A DNA stretch of 64,000 nucleotides from the sequence record NC_048196.1; one strand, given 5' to 3'. Below the pieces are notes generated by a model, which was not told the DNA's origin, searched no databases, and worked only from the letters and a program-made list of their open reading frames with translations. A program made the position numbers and the translations under genes. This document shows, one piece after another, positions 23,708 to 25,871 of this stretch; within the stretch, counting starts at the first letter, position 1, and each line of letters begins with the position of its first letter. This DNA is from Escherichia phage vB_EcoM_Schickermooser.

Positions 23708-23737
23708 TTGACAAACGTATCCTTCATATGTTAGGAT
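23708..23737 (+). promoter_or_regulatory. sigma70-like promoter, copy 1 of AACTATTGACAA family
   Basis: TTGACA-18nt-TAGGAT. Confidence 0.45.
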
Positions 23738-23946: not shown

Positions 23947-24021
23947 GGCCCTGTAGCTCAATGGGAGAGCTGTCGGCTCATAACCGATAGGTAGCTGGAT
24001 CGAAACCAGCCAGGGCCACCA
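23947..24021 (+). tRNA. tRNA-Met or Ile2 (anticodon CAT)
   Basis: Cloverleaf folded by hand; anticodon loop CTCATAA; encoded CCA. Confidence 0.8.
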
Positions 24022-24023
24022 AA

Positions 24024-24098
24024 GTCTTTATGGTGTAATGGATAGCACAGGAGTCTTCTAAACTCTTAGTCAAGGTTCGATTCCTTGTAAAGACACCA
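24024..24098 (+). tRNA. tRNA-Arg (TCT)
   Basis: 7-bp acceptor stem, loop CTTCTAA, T-loop TTCGATT, encoded CCA. Confidence 0.8.
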
Positions 24099-24294
24099 GA
24101 ACATTTTAACATGAATTAGCTCAAGTGATTTGAACCCACTACTGATCATGGTGGCAGAGAATGAGGCAAGTATGTCAGACATTATAAACAAAGGCCACGG
24201 TTATATTAGAAGACATAAATGCTCGAAGAGCACCGTTCGTGGAGAACGGGGGTTGGTGGAGTCACCATTCATGGTAAAATGTTTTAAAAAACTA

Positions 24295-24324
24295 TTGACA
24301 ACAAGTATTATTTTATGTTAGATT
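24295..24324 (+). promoter_or_regulatory. sigma70-like promoter, copy 2 of AACTATTGACAA family
   Basis: TTGACA-18nt-TAGATT. Confidence 0.45.
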
Positions 24325-24332
24325 ATAAGTAT

Positions 24333-24423
24333 GGAAGGGCAAATCGACGTGGCGACGAAAACGGTCTTGAAAACCGCCGAGCTTTAAAGAGCCTTGGGAG
24401 TTCGACTCTCCCTCCTTCCGCCA
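24333..24423 (+). tRNA. tRNA-Ser (TGA), long variable arm
   Basis: Loop CTTGAAA, long extra arm, discriminator G, CCA. Confidence 0.7.
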
Positions 24424-24428
24424 GGTTA

Positions 24429-24514
24429 GGTAGATTGGTGAAATGGTAGCCACGACAGTTTGCTAAACTGTAGTCGGAAACGGCGTGTAGGTTCGAGTCC
24501 TACATCTACCGCCA
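24429..24514 (+). tRNA. tRNA-Ser (GCT), long variable arm
   Basis: Stem ACAGT/ACTGT, loop TTGCTAA, long extra arm, G73, CCA. Confidence 0.75.
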
Positions 24515-24644
24515 AGTTCTTTTTAATGTAGCTTACTTTAATAGAGTAAACTTTCGGCAAATGGCCCCCACCATCTTACCGATAACTCATAGTTAGTGGT
24601 GCGAACACTGGCTATTTTAAAAAGAATTTAAATACTAGCATTTA

Positions 24645-24732
24645 GGTGAGTTAATTCCGTAGGGGTAGCGGGGCAGACTGTAAATCTGTTATCATTGCGA
24701 TTCGGGTGGTTCGACTCCATCACTCACCACCA
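24645..24732 (+). tRNA. tRNA-Tyr (GTA), long variable arm
   Basis: Anticodon arm GCAGA-CTGTAAA-TCTGT closely matches E. coli tRNA-Tyr; A73, CCA. Confidence 0.7.
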
Positions 24733-24738
24733 AATTAA

Positions 24739-24824
24739 GATGAGTTGGCTGAATGGTTTAAGCGGCGGACTGTTAATCCGTGTTCGAAAGAACGATATAG
24801 GTTCAAATCCTATACTCATCGCCA
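24739..24824 (+). tRNA. long-variable-arm tRNA with Asn-type anticodon arm (GTT)
   Basis: Acceptor GATGAGT/ACTCATC, 3-bp D-stem, anticodon arm GCGGA-CTGTTAA-TCCGT, 15-nt extra arm with GTTC-GAAA-GAAC hairpin, G73, CCA. Confidence 0.55.
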
Positions 24825-24831
24825 GAATTAT

Positions 24832-24910
24832 GGACTTGTAGAGTTAAGGTAAACCCCCCAGTCGCCAAGAGGCTTCTGGAATTGCAGGTATCGAATCCTG
24901 CCGAGTCCCA
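24832..24910 (+). ncRNA. tRNA-like element with degenerate D and anticodon arms
   Basis: Acceptor GGACTTG/CGAGTCC and T-arm-like hairpin present; no canonical anticodon arm. Confidence 0.25.
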
Positions 24911-24915
24911 GCTTT

Positions 24916-24990
24916 GCTCCTATAGTATAATGGCTATTACAACGGTTTTGTAATCCGTGGATCTCTGTTCGATTCAGAGTGGGAGCACCA
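24916..24990 (+). tRNA. tRNA-Thr (TGT)
   Basis: Loop TTTGTAA, T-loop TTCGATT, CCA; one mismatch closing anticodon stem. Confidence 0.7.
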
Positions 24991-25263
24991 ACACAACATT
25001 AAGGGCACTGTGATTGATCGTCGTATCCTGTGCACAAGGTCTGTTCGAAAGACAGTGTTCTTAGTATTGTGTTGATCACAAAAAGAGTTACCTGAAACTT
25101 GACCGGAGTAGGGTTGGATGGGGCAAAAGAAGAAGCGGCTCTCCCATCGACAGCAACGAAGAATAATATTTGACTTTGGTTTTGTATTATTTTAAGTTAG
25201 CTTACCGAACGTAGGGCTAGTCACCCAATGGGATACTCGTCACTGTCCCACTCAATAAAACTA

Positions 25264-25293
25264 TTGACAACCAATAGTAAAATGTAGTATAGT
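25264..25293 (+). promoter_or_regulatory. sigma70-like promoter, copy 3 of AACTATTGACAA family
   Basis: TTGACA-18nt-TATAGT. Confidence 0.55.
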
Positions 25294-25304
25294 AAAGATG
25301 TAGG

Positions 25305-25378
25305 GCGTTCTTGGTGTAGCGGTAGCATTCCGTCCTTCCAAGTCGGCGGCACGAGTTCGATCCTCGTAGAACGCTCCA
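25305..25378 (+). tRNA. tRNA-Gly (TCC)
   Basis: Loop CTTCCAA, T-arm ACGAGTTCGATCCTCGT, discriminator T, CCA; layout like E. coli tRNA-Gly. Confidence 0.75.
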
Positions 25379-25476
25379 AATTATTTAATAAAGGGTTGCC
25401 AGAAAACTTTCTCTTTTACTCATGGTTTTCTCCTTCTCTCACACCTCTTCTGGTTGCCCTTCATTAAATGATTTAT

Positions 25477-25552
25477 TGGTTTGTAGTGTAGTCAGGTAGC
25501 ACACGACACTTTGACTGTCGTAGGTTTGGTTCAAATCCAGACAGACCAGCCA
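25477..25552 (+). tRNA. tRNA-Gln (TTG)
   Basis: Stem CGACA/TGTCG, loop CTTTGAC, CCA. Confidence 0.7.
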
Positions 25553-25557
25553 TATAA

Positions 25558-25634
25558 CGGAATTTAGCTCAGTTTGGTAGAGCATACGCTTTGGGAGCGT
25601 AGGGTCGCAGGTTCGAATCCTGCAATTCCGACCA
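25558..25634 (+). tRNA. tRNA-Pro (TGG)
   Basis: D-arm GCTCAGTTTGGTAGAGC, loop TTTGGGA, CCA. Confidence 0.8.
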
Positions 25635-25640
25635 ATTTAA

Positions 25641-25714
25641 TGTTTCGTAGTTCAATGGTAGAACCCACGACTGATAATCGTGAGACACAAGTTCGATTCT
25701 TGTCGAAACAACCA
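25641..25714 (+). tRNA. tRNA-Ile (GAT)
   Basis: Stem CACGA/TCGTG, loop CTGATAA, CCA. Confidence 0.75.
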
Positions 25715-25716
25715 AT

Positions 25717-25790
25717 TTCCCGTTAGACTTACAGGATAAGAGTTCCACAGCTTATTGTGATGCTGGTTCGAATCCAGCACGGGATACATA
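25717..25790 (+). ncRNA. tRNA-like element with non-canonical anticodon arm
   Basis: Acceptor, D and T arms (GCTGG-TTCGAAT-CCAGC) present; anticodon region folds only as CACAG-CTTA-TTGTG hairpin; no encoded CCA. Confidence 0.3.
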
Positions 25791-25792
25791 AT

Positions 25793-25871
25793 AGCGGGAT
25801 AGAGGAGTCTGGTCGTCCTCGCCAGTTTCATATGCTGGAGATCATCGGTTCAAATCCGATTCCCGCCTCCA
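25793..25871 (+). tRNA. tRNA-Met or Ile2 (anticodon CAT), second CAT tRNA
   Basis: Loop TTCATAT, T-loop TTCAAAT, CCA; A1-C72 mismatch. Confidence 0.65.

Follow-up and report, generated by a model that had tools for sequence, protein, structure and literature searches.

A tRNA-Asn(GUU) gene with a long variable arm in a phAPEC8-like phage and its nearly phage-confined family

Class II tRNAs are defined by a variable region of at least 10 nt that forms a stem-loop (PMC7609411). The bacterial determinants of serine identity comprise G73, C72, G2-C71, R4-Y69, C11-G24, a large variable region and G30-C40, whereby G2:C71 is absolutely conserved in E. coli tRNA-Ser and the identity as a whole is independent of the anticodon, resting chiefly on the variable arm (PMC9976931). 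Asparagine identity was assigned to G73, G34, U35, U36 and A37, and tyrosine identity to A73, G34 and U35 (PMC9976931). Long-arm bodies with a non-Ser anticodon have been described as allo-tRNAs and as anticodon variants of tRNA-Ser, which are mistranslating (PMC7609411, PMC9976931).

tRNAs are also targets of bacterial defence systems. AriB of the PARIS system cleaves E. coli tRNA-Lys(UUU) as well as tRNA-Thr(UGU) and, secondarily, tRNA-Asn(GUU) between positions 40 and 41; its site in the latter is U36-A-A-U-C/C41, with the slash marking the cut, and cleavage also depends on contacts that lie distal to the anticodon loop (PMC12409363). P2 OLD acts on several tRNAs of E. coli by cutting their anticodon stem, tRNA-Asn(GUU) being among those assayed (PMC12445682), and a known route of evasion consists of changes in the anticodon stem-loop of phage tRNAs (PMC10264068). 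The Lys, Thr and Asn tRNAs of phage T5 were found to jointly rescue infection from PARIS, and the tRNA-Asn of phage Bas34 was found to be insufficient against it (PMC12409363). Both of these tRNA-Asn are of class I, the T5 molecule having 78 nt and an anticodon stem-loop unlike that of the host (mismatches, U32) and the one of Bas34 (phage SelmaRatti) having 77 nt, and for this reason both experiments were set aside as evidence on long-arm molecules.

The window considered here comprises 64,000 nucleotides from Escherichia phage vB_EcoM_Schickermooser (NC_048196.1), a phAPEC8-like myophage (Phapecoctavirus, Stephanstirmvirinae). It holds a tRNA gene for which the original prediction had described an Asn anticodon arm on a class II-style body and had raised the idea that the molecule is serylated and decodes AAC/AAU as Ser. 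The first part of this interpretation holds, the second finds no support. In bacteria, long arms are by rule confined to the Leu, Ser, Tyr and Sec tRNAs, with the arm serving as the main handle of SerRS, and this rule is broken by the family to which the gene belongs.

The tRNA-Asn gene and its genomic setting

When applied to the window, ARAGORN reported a tRNA-Asn(gtt) of 86 nt with exactly the span given in Table 1 and with the anticodon starting at position 34. Rfam RF00005 matched the gene with 62 bits, as compared to a gathering score of 29, and covered model positions 1-71; in its alignment 12 nt of the variable region appear as an insertion and the anticodon loop is the same as that of ARAGORN, hence the covariance-model check proposed along with the original prediction yielded no differing loop. 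The cloverleaf together with the extra hairpin was recovered in the minimum free energy (MFE) fold, whose shuffle z-score of -1.71 is by itself weak. Span and fold of the 86-nt tRNA that had been claimed from hand folding were thus confirmed by all three approaches, and the claimed details were found as well, namely the 3-bp D-stem and G73 in the ARAGORN drawing and the 15-nt extra arm GTTC-GAAA-GAAC as variable hairpin in both that drawing and the MFE fold. The locus is a real phage tRNA gene.

According to the ARAGORN drawing and the MFE fold, the acceptor stem consists of 7 bp, among them G1:C72, A2:U71, U3:A70 and G4:C69, and the acceptor/T architecture is the canonical 7/5. The D-stem, as drawn by ARAGORN, is formed by G10:C25, C11:G24 and U12:A23 and is followed by G13/A22; the closest D-arms in other phages are those of long-arm tRNA-Asn and of tRNA-Ser. 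The variable hairpin starts without any unpaired nucleotide after position 43 and leaves three nucleotides (GAU) unpaired on its 3' side. With a variable region of 15 nt that folds into a stem-loop, the molecule has the size and shape of a class II tRNA, but its anticodon GUU lies outside the class II isotypes of bacteria (Leu, Ser, Tyr, Sec), and the 4-5 nt variable loop of a typical class I tRNA-Asn body is replaced by the hairpin.

The comparison with the host yielded a mosaic. Positions 26-43, i.e., a G followed by GCGGACUGUUAAUCCGU, are identical to asnT/U/V/W of E. coli K-12 at 18/18 positions, which bears out the match named in the original prediction; for the anticodon arm alone the figure is 17/17, and in the acceptor stem none of the 14 positions is shared. 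G73, which had been counted among the features of Ser, Leu and Tyr tRNAs, is present, but it is equally the discriminator of tRNA-Asn, and as it is the same in the phage and the E. coli tRNA-Asn, both carry the same bacterial Asn identity set in this respect.

Table 1. Coordinates of the tRNA-Asn gene, its parts and neighbouring features in the window
Feature	Position	Strand	Details and source
tRNA-Asn(GUU) gene, complete, encoded CCA included	24739..24824	+	86 nt; ARAGORN, Rfam RF00005
Acceptor stem, 5' strand GAUGAGU	24739..24745	+	partner 24814-24820; ARAGORN drawing
D-arm, loop AAUGGUUU, class II style	24748..24763	+	ARAGORN drawing
Anticodon arm GCGGA-CUGUUAA-UCCGU	24765..24781	+	anticodon GUU at 24772-24774; ARAGORN, Rfam
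Variable region	24782..24796	+	15 nt; MFE fold, ARAGORN drawing, family alignment
Variable hairpin GUUC-GAAA-GAAC	24782..24793		4-bp stem 24782-24785/24790-24793, GAAA loop 24786-24789; GAU at 24794-24796 unpaired
T-arm AUAGG-UUCAAAU-CCUAU	24797..24813	+	Rfam, ARAGORN drawing, family covariation
Acceptor 3' strand ACUCAUC, discriminator G73, CCA	24814..24824	+	G73 at 24821, CCA at 24822-24824; ARAGORN drawing
tRNA cluster	23947..25871	+	ten tRNAs by ARAGORN; Rfam; comprises Met, Arg-UCU, Ser-UGA-like, Ser-GCU, Tyr, Asn, Thr-UGU, Gly, Gln, Pro, Ile-GAU, Met/Ile2-like
tRNA-Ser(GCU)	24429..24514
Degenerate tRNA-like element	24645..24729		tRNA-Pseudo-GTA in a relative
Degenerate tRNA-like element	24832..24908		without anticodon loop
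Promoter-like site TTGACA-N18-TAGATT, with TG	24295..24324	+	consensus scan, 10/12 matches
Perfect TTGACA site	23708
Perfect TTGACA site	25264

The cluster lies between leftward genes of nucleotide metabolism and rightward spanin, terminase and structural genes, and shares the orientation of the latter; its region shows 97-99% identity to many Escherichia phages, and the tRNA-Asn has been annotated both in RefSeq phAPEC8 (NC_020079) and in many relatives. Downstream of the promoter-like site at 24295 follows a block of Ser(UGA)-like, Ser(GCU), Tyr, Asn, tRNA-like and Thr elements, in which tRNA-Tyr directly precedes tRNA-Asn, and the two further TTGACA sites stand ahead of the two remaining tRNA blocks. 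The total of promoter-like sites in the consensus scan is not above that of shuffles and their support is positional; going by position, the candidate promoter at 24295 probably drives transcription of the tRNA-Asn. PHROG and Pfam scans of the small flanking ORFs returned nothing tRNA-related.

A family of long-arm tRNA-Asn in phages

A BLAST search with the gene against 50,697 phage records returned matches in 292, and for 210 records the match spans 80% or more of the gene length. The matching phages infect Escherichia, Salmonella, Klebsiella, Proteus, Enterobacter, Serratia and Erwinia, their loci are almost always annotated as tRNA-Asn, and in many of them the gene is 100% identical. When IMG/VR was scanned for the Asn anticodon arm followed by 10-20 nt and a T-loop, long-arm tRNA-Asn were identified on 67 contigs, which are 13-476 kb long and come from a wide range of environments, and ARAGORN called the matches tRNA-Asn of 79-90 nt. 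The class I form of the pattern matched at least 120 times in IMG/VR, so the long-arm form makes up a substantial minority of the viral tRNA-Asn with this anticodon arm. When a similar pattern with 13-20 nt was applied to cellular genomes, one per bacterial or archaeal species, seven matches were obtained among 185,579 species' genomes; all seven are on contigs of metagenome-assembled genomes (MAGs), and at least three of them sit within dense phage-style tRNA arrays. No match over at least 80% of the gene was found by BLAST among 5,426 E. coli genomes; a match of 35 nt in yobD was put down to chance. The long-arm tRNA-Asn family is therefore widespread and nearly confined to phages, more precisely to tRNA-rich ones, as the median number of tRNAs per locus is 12. 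Within T5-like phages, one shared genomic slot is occupied by the 78-nt class I tRNA-Asn in T5, by one of 83 nt in Bas32 and by one of 86 nt in Bas29. Extra arms are also found on other class I isotypes of phages, with Thr(UGU) being the second commonest and Trp, Cys, His and Ile(UAU) being further cases; for Lys(UUU) there is one. The gene itself is already known, being annotated as tRNA-Asn in hundreds of records, whereas for the structural type, i.e., a long-arm class II-like phage tRNA-Asn or its family, no earlier description was found in the open-access literature.

For the analysis of covariation, a covariance model was built from nine family members and the fetched viral loci were searched at E <= 1e-15, which kept long-arm Asn only (at E <= 1e-8 the 287 matches represented all tRNAs). 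The resulting alignment holds 50 sequences with 40 distinct rows and was fitted to the model structure, by which pairing is somewhat inflated; 95.6% of its cells are paired, as compared to 35-47% with slid partners. The covariation score is 0.749 versus 0.169 for shuffles, none of 500 shuffles scored equally high, and all five helices are backed across the 40 distinct homologues. The acceptor helix is paired in 99.6% of cells with compensatory changes in 7/7 pairs, and for the extra helix two-sided changes are seen in 4/4 pairs at 91% of cells paired, one of these pairs occurring as AU in 13, GC in 10, UA in 9 and CG in 5 cases. Among 50 distinct long-arm sequences, 28 different stem sequences were counted and the GAAA loop was found in 21. 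Such compensatory changes in 28 stems, together with GAAA across very divergent phages, point to purifying selection on the arm, and judged by this comparison the extra arm is no accident but has been maintained by selection in a family restricted to phages.

The geometry of the arm was expressed as the number of unpaired nucleotides on its 5' and 3' sides. Long-arm tRNA-Asn have stems of 2-5 bp with (0,3) in 19 and (1,4) in 12 cases, close to phage tRNA-Tyr (3-4 bp, (1,3) or (0,3)) and to E. coli tyrU (3 bp, (1,3)), whereas phage tRNA-Ser have stems of 4-9 bp, mostly in (1,1) geometry. The arm in the window, with 4 bp and (0,3) register, is by this measure more Tyr-like than Ser-like. As to the comparison with host tRNA-Ser suggested in the original prediction, the arm is unlike that of E. 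coli serV and serU (6-7 bp, (1,1)).

Probable charging of the tRNA and possible purpose of its arm

Taken together, we consider it probable that the gene encodes a functional phage tRNA-Asn of an unusual, phage-restricted long-arm type, which is charged by the host AsnRS and aids the phage. The tRNA would be co-transcribed with its neighbours from about 24295 and, its CCA being encoded, would need no CCA addition. Host AsnRS would then charge it with asparagine, which is likely because all bacterial elements of Asn identity (G34, U35, U36, A37, G73) are present and the anticodon arm is identical to that of the host; the TyrRS set is incomplete, with G34 and U35 present but G73 in place of A73. 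Once charged, the tRNA would read AAC and AAU as Asn. In line with this, the family keeps the Asn elements GUU, A37 and G73 (G73 in 46 of 50 distinct sequences, along with the bacterial Asn-type U1:A72 in 31 of 50), while pair 2:71 is found as GC in 20, CG in 16, UA in 8 and AU in 6 and pair 3:70 is just as variable; with G73 kept and both pairs free, selection has acted on Asn and not on Ser determinants, and of the arguments on the charging synthetase this family comparison is the strongest. Class IIb synthetases come to the tRNA from the side of the variable region, and as a consequence the long arm might hinder AsnRS. We infer two benefits: the tRNA may supply Asn for an Asn-rich late proteome, and it possibly replaces host tRNA-Asn, an AriB target, where this has been depleted by tRNA-targeting defences.

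How the phage uses AAY codons was assessed by aligning its NrdA, NrdB and RmlB-like proteins with their E. coli K-12 homologues. The 75 phage AAY codons align to E. coli Asn in 25, to Asp in 9 and to Ser in 7 cases, and the self-conservation of Asn codons in these alignments (33%) equals the rates for codons of Ser (34%), Thr (33%) and Lys (32%). In this genome AAY is written for Asn. The Asn share of codons is 5.9% in a set of 23 large ORFs; for the strand of the structural genes it is 6.4%. This exceeds the usage of about 3.9% in E. coli. This high share suits a role in Asn supply and would make Asn-to-Ser mistranslation costly.

The alternative according to which SerRS serylates the tRNA by way of its long arm and G73, AAC/AAU being partly read as Ser in deliberate mistranslation, is regarded as very improbable. 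It has a real basis, as serine identity ignores the anticodon and lies mainly in the variable arm (PMC9976931), and six of the seven Ser determinants are found in the molecule (G73, C72, G4:C69, C11:G24, G30:C40 and the large variable region), of which G73 and G30:C40 also occur in E. coli tRNA-Asn. The similarity of its body is 0.77 to phage tRNA-Ser and, nearly equal, 0.78 to other long-arm Asn, and its arm has the length of that in the phage's own tRNA-Ser(GCU), a GAAA-capped stem of 4 bp in (1,2) geometry and shifted by one nucleotide in register, so that arm length alone is no argument against SerRS. Yet the sole missing determinant, G2:C71, which is replaced by A2:U71, is invariant in 43/43 distinct tRNA-Ser sequences from the same viral loci (A3:U70 in 39/43), and the long-arm Asn family bears no mark of selection on 2:71 or 3:70. 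The (0,3) register of the arm is Tyr-like; E. coli SerRS is reported, from work of Himeno and colleagues in 1990, to refuse the arm of tRNA-Tyr unless this is re-oriented and given additional nucleotides. Furthermore, the complete Asn set implies competition from AsnRS, the AAY codons are located at Asn-conserved sites, and random Asn-to-Ser changes would burden a proteome so rich in Asn. Even less credible is a decaying or non-functional pseudogene: degenerate tRNA-like elements do exist in the same cluster, but the perfect cloverleaf with its Rfam score, the identity of the gene in many phages, its plain tRNA-Asn annotation beside neighbours flagged as pseudo, the conservation of G73 and CCA, and covariation in all helices speak against it. 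It is also unlikely, albeit less so than serylation, that the arm is an inherited and functionless relic, tolerated since a class II tRNA of a phage, be it Tyr or Ser, was switched to Asn, either through changes of anticodon and discriminator (in tRNA-Tyr, GUA to GUU and A73 to G73) or by acquiring the anticodon arm of Asn in a recombination event. Such a history would account for the Tyr-like arm geometry, for G34 and U35 being common to Tyr and Asn, for the most similar tRNAs within the window (tRNA-Ser(GCU) 69% and tRNA-Tyr 65%, as compared to 50-58% for class I tRNAs) and, by recombination, for the mosaic of host-identical anticodon arm and wholly different acceptor stem. tRNA-Tyr lies directly upstream of tRNA-Asn in the window and in 7/64 viral cases and adjoins it in the MAG loci L073 and L077. 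This adjacency is only modestly enriched, however, and the purifying selection on the arm does not fit a relic; U1:A72 and the class I-like D-arms of most family members suggest either the addition of arms to genuine tRNA-Asn or their long retention. An origin from tRNA-Tyr was accordingly not adopted as a conclusion, given the 7/64 adjacency and a body analysis that slightly favours Ser over Tyr, and was kept as a minor rival.

A further idea concerns not the charging but the arm, which might act as a structural shield against nucleases of the anticodon stem (AriB, P2 OLD) and let the phage tRNA-Asn outlive that of the host. This would add a purpose for the arm to the AsnRS-charged tRNA-Asn favoured here and would not replace that reading; we put it forward tentatively, as the best of several doubtful options. 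The AriB site UAAUC/C is intact, and as the anticodon stem-loop is that of the host at 17/17 positions, the tRNA lacks the known mark of evasion, i.e., an anticodon stem or loop unlike the host's near the nuclease site, so any resistance must stem from elsewhere. The host-identical stem-loop may have been kept because AsnRS and the Q34/t6A37 enzymes need it, with the hairpin starting right after position 43, and AriB needs distal contacts beyond the anticodon loop as well (PMC12409363). T5 solves the problem otherwise, by a mismatched anticodon stem in a class I tRNA-Asn, and the tRNA-Thr(UGU) of the window, an isotype that is a prime target of AriB and OLD, carries a U31/U39 mismatch by which its stem is shortened. 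That Thr(UGU) ranks second among the class I isotypes with an extra arm, that OLD cuts in the anticodon stem with tRNA-Asn(GUU) among the tRNAs assayed (PMC12445682), and that the family is limited to tRNA-rich phages likewise accord with a shield. Against it stand the single extra arm on Lys(UUU), the main AriB target, the extra arms on Trp, Cys, His and Ile(UAU), which are no known targets, and the cleavage of class II tRNA-Tyr itself by PtuAB of retron-Eco7 (PMC11555353), according to which an arm gives no general protection. The wider proposition that tailed phages evolved a structural class of tRNA-Asn of their own, a GNRA-capped hairpin being grafted onto it as a counter-defence device, must be considered somewhat less likely still, and so must its extension to the rarer use of the design on tRNA-Thr(UGU), Trp, Cys, His and Ile(UAU). 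If true, the hairpin would keep the host-like stem-loop accessible to AsnRS and the modifying enzymes and yet render the tRNA refractory to AriB, P2 OLD and related nucleases that cut there, and it would constitute a second tRNA-based route of immune evasion, distinct from mutations of the anticodon stem-loop.

The family reaches the BASEL model phages Bas29 and Bas32 as well as therapeutic-type phAPEC8-like phages, and it raises the questions of how AsnRS tolerates the arm and SerRS rejects it, whether the arm protects against tRNA-cleaving defences aimed at tRNA-Asn, and whether long-arm genes are mis-scored by annotation pipelines and isotype models. An arm that serves as an anti-nuclease shield would represent a new mechanism in the tRNA arms race between phage and host and a design element for nuclease-resistant or orthogonal tRNAs; an arm that is merely tolerated would measure the structural freedom allowed by AsnRS, EF-Tu and the ribosome.

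Comparison with known tRNAs

Compared with the tRNA-Asn(GUU) of E. coli (asnT/U/V/W), the phage molecule shares the anticodon, the G27-U43 wobble pair and G73, but the host tRNA is a class I molecule of 76 nt that has U1:A72, a D-stem of 4 bp and 5 nt in its variable loop, as opposed to 86 nt, G1:C72, a D-stem of 3 bp and a variable arm formed by a 15-nt hairpin. Bacterial class II tRNA-Tyr (e.g., E. coli tyrU) resembles it in the short variable stem of 3-4 bp with three unpaired 3' nucleotides, in the class II D-arm and in G34-U35, and differs by A73 and A36, which are TyrRS determinants, where the phage tRNA-Asn has G73 and U36. The tRNA-Ser(GCU) of the window agrees with it in length (86 nt), 3-bp D-stem, G73, G1:C72, a C11:G24-type core and the GAAA-capped 4-bp variable hairpin. 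Ser tRNAs, however, always have G2:C71, nearly always A3:U70 and usually a longer arm with one unpaired nucleotide on each side, unlike the A2:U71, U3:A70 and (0,3) register of the phage tRNA-Asn. With the tRNA-Asn(GUU) of T5 it has in common that it is phage-encoded, lies in a large tRNA cluster and represents an AriB-targeted isotype; the T5 molecule departs from the host in its anticodon stem-loop and the one in the window by its extra arm, and the T5 relatives Bas29 and Bas32 have long-arm tRNA-Asn of 86 and 83 nt, respectively. Finally, allo-tRNAs and anticodon-mismatched Ser-type tRNAs likewise combine a long-arm body with a non-Ser anticodon and are the precedent for the serylation idea, but these tRNAs keep acceptor determinants for Ser (or Ala), some with an 8/4 or 9/3 acceptor/T architecture, whereas the phage tRNA-Asn is of the 7/5 type, lacks G2:C71 and carries the full Asn identity set.

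Organization of the tRNA cluster

Each of the three tRNA gene blocks is preceded by one promoter-like site, a placement which suggests that the cluster comprises three transcription units. ANN codons are read by 7 of the 11 clear tRNAs of the cluster (23947-25871), these being Met, Arg-UCU, Ser-GCU, Asn, Thr-UGU, Ile-GAU and the second CAU tRNA. In E. coli, tRNAs reading ANN codons carry t6A37, and some known targets of the defence nucleases AriB and OLD belong to this class.

Features of the tRNA cluster and of the fetched loci (L-numbers)
Feature	Location	Strand	Remark
Promoter-like site	23708-23737	+	perfect TTGACA -35 hexamer
Promoter-like site	24295-24324	+	perfect TTGACA -35 hexamer; just upstream of the Ser(UGA)-type element
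tRNA-like gene, Ser(UGA)-type class II	24333-24422	+	by eye; sub-threshold Rfam match
tRNA-Tyr(GTA)	24645-24729	+	Rfam only, 39 bits
tRNA-like element	24832-24908	+	predicted fold; between Asn and Thr genes
tRNA-Thr(UGU)	24916-24990	+	
Promoter-like site	25264-25293	+	perfect TTGACA -35 hexamer
T5 tRNA-Asn	L070:13953-14030		78 nt
tRNA-Cys with extra hairpin	L003:9032-9115		example, IMG/VR
tRNA-Trp with extra hairpin	L003:9120-9203		example, IMG/VR
tRNA-Thr(UGU) with extra hairpin	L028, L062, L089		examples
tRNA-His with extra hairpin	L092, L151		examples
tRNA-Ile, anticodon TAT	L010, L014, L058, L091, L131		91-95 nt
tRNA array	L071:4061-7952		MAG contig JALVDN010000438.1, Flavobacteriales

Irregular members of the cluster

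For the Ser(UGA)-type element no tRNA call was obtained from ARAGORN, and its Rfam match, to tRNA-Sec, reached 38 bits at a threshold of 47. Judged by eye, its sequence features mark it as a putative class II tRNA of Ser(UGA) type: the acceptor stem GGAAGGG/UCCUUCC includes G2:C71 and A3:U70, the loop CUUGAAA, G73, CCA and a long arm are all present, and the D-arm is aberrant. Some relatives have a second tRNA-Ser annotated in this region. Likewise, ARAGORN gave no call for the tRNA-Tyr(GTA) gene, in which acceptor and D-stem are spaced by 5 nt instead of 2 and the anticodon stem has 4 bp; the annotation of phage Mt1B1_P17 lists it as tRNA-Pseudo-GTA. In phAPEC8, a relative of the window, the same slot holds a different, canonical tRNA-Tyr of 84 nt, and hence the slot has undergone replacement or is decaying.

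In the tRNA-like element, the strands GGACUUG/CGAGUCC form a good acceptor stem of 7 bp, and a T-arm (GCAGG-UAUCGAAU-CCUGC) is also present. The D and anticodon arms are replaced by a long, irregular hairpin whose loop has 4 nt; the MFE z-score of the element is -2.58. It is reminiscent of what the T5 annotation calls 'tRNA-like stable RNAs' in the tRNA region of that phage.

Extra arms on other isotypes

Non-Asn class I isotypes of IMG/VR loci occasionally bear an extra hairpin of the same type in the variable region, whose short stem and GNRA-type loop are followed by 3-4 unpaired 3' nucleotides. Among non-Asn class I tRNAs it occurs in 39 of 558 in loci with a long-arm tRNA-Asn and in 10 of 304 in loci with a class I tRNA-Asn, and Thr(UGU) is the commonest such isotype after Asn in the loci examined. 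Five different phage tRNA-Ile(UAU) genes possess variable arms of 21-25 nt, tipped in four (L010, L058, L091, L131) by CCAGAUUAG and in L014 by the variant CCGAUUAAUG, a motif which looks like a second anticodon-loop-like hairpin.

One long-arm and one class I tRNA-Asn occur together in the L071 array, where 21 tRNA genes lie within about 4 kb and overlapping tmRNA calls are also present. This 11-kb contig from a bacterial bin resembles a piece of phage genome wrongly assigned to the MAG.

Anticodon stems and tRNA-cleaving nucleases

In the tRNA-Thr(UGU) of the window, a U31/U39 mismatch renders the anticodon stem shorter than that of E. coli thrU, similar to the stem-shortening changes reported to confer P2 OLD resistance on phage tRNA-Thr (PMC12445682). 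The anticodon arm of the T5 tRNA-Asn is strongly divergent (GCAUC-UUGUUAA-GUUGA), with mismatches G27/A43 and U30/U40 and also U32, which is consistent with evasion of AriB through stem-loop mutation. Unlike T5, its relatives Bas29 and Bas32 possess a long-arm tRNA-Asn with a host-like stem.
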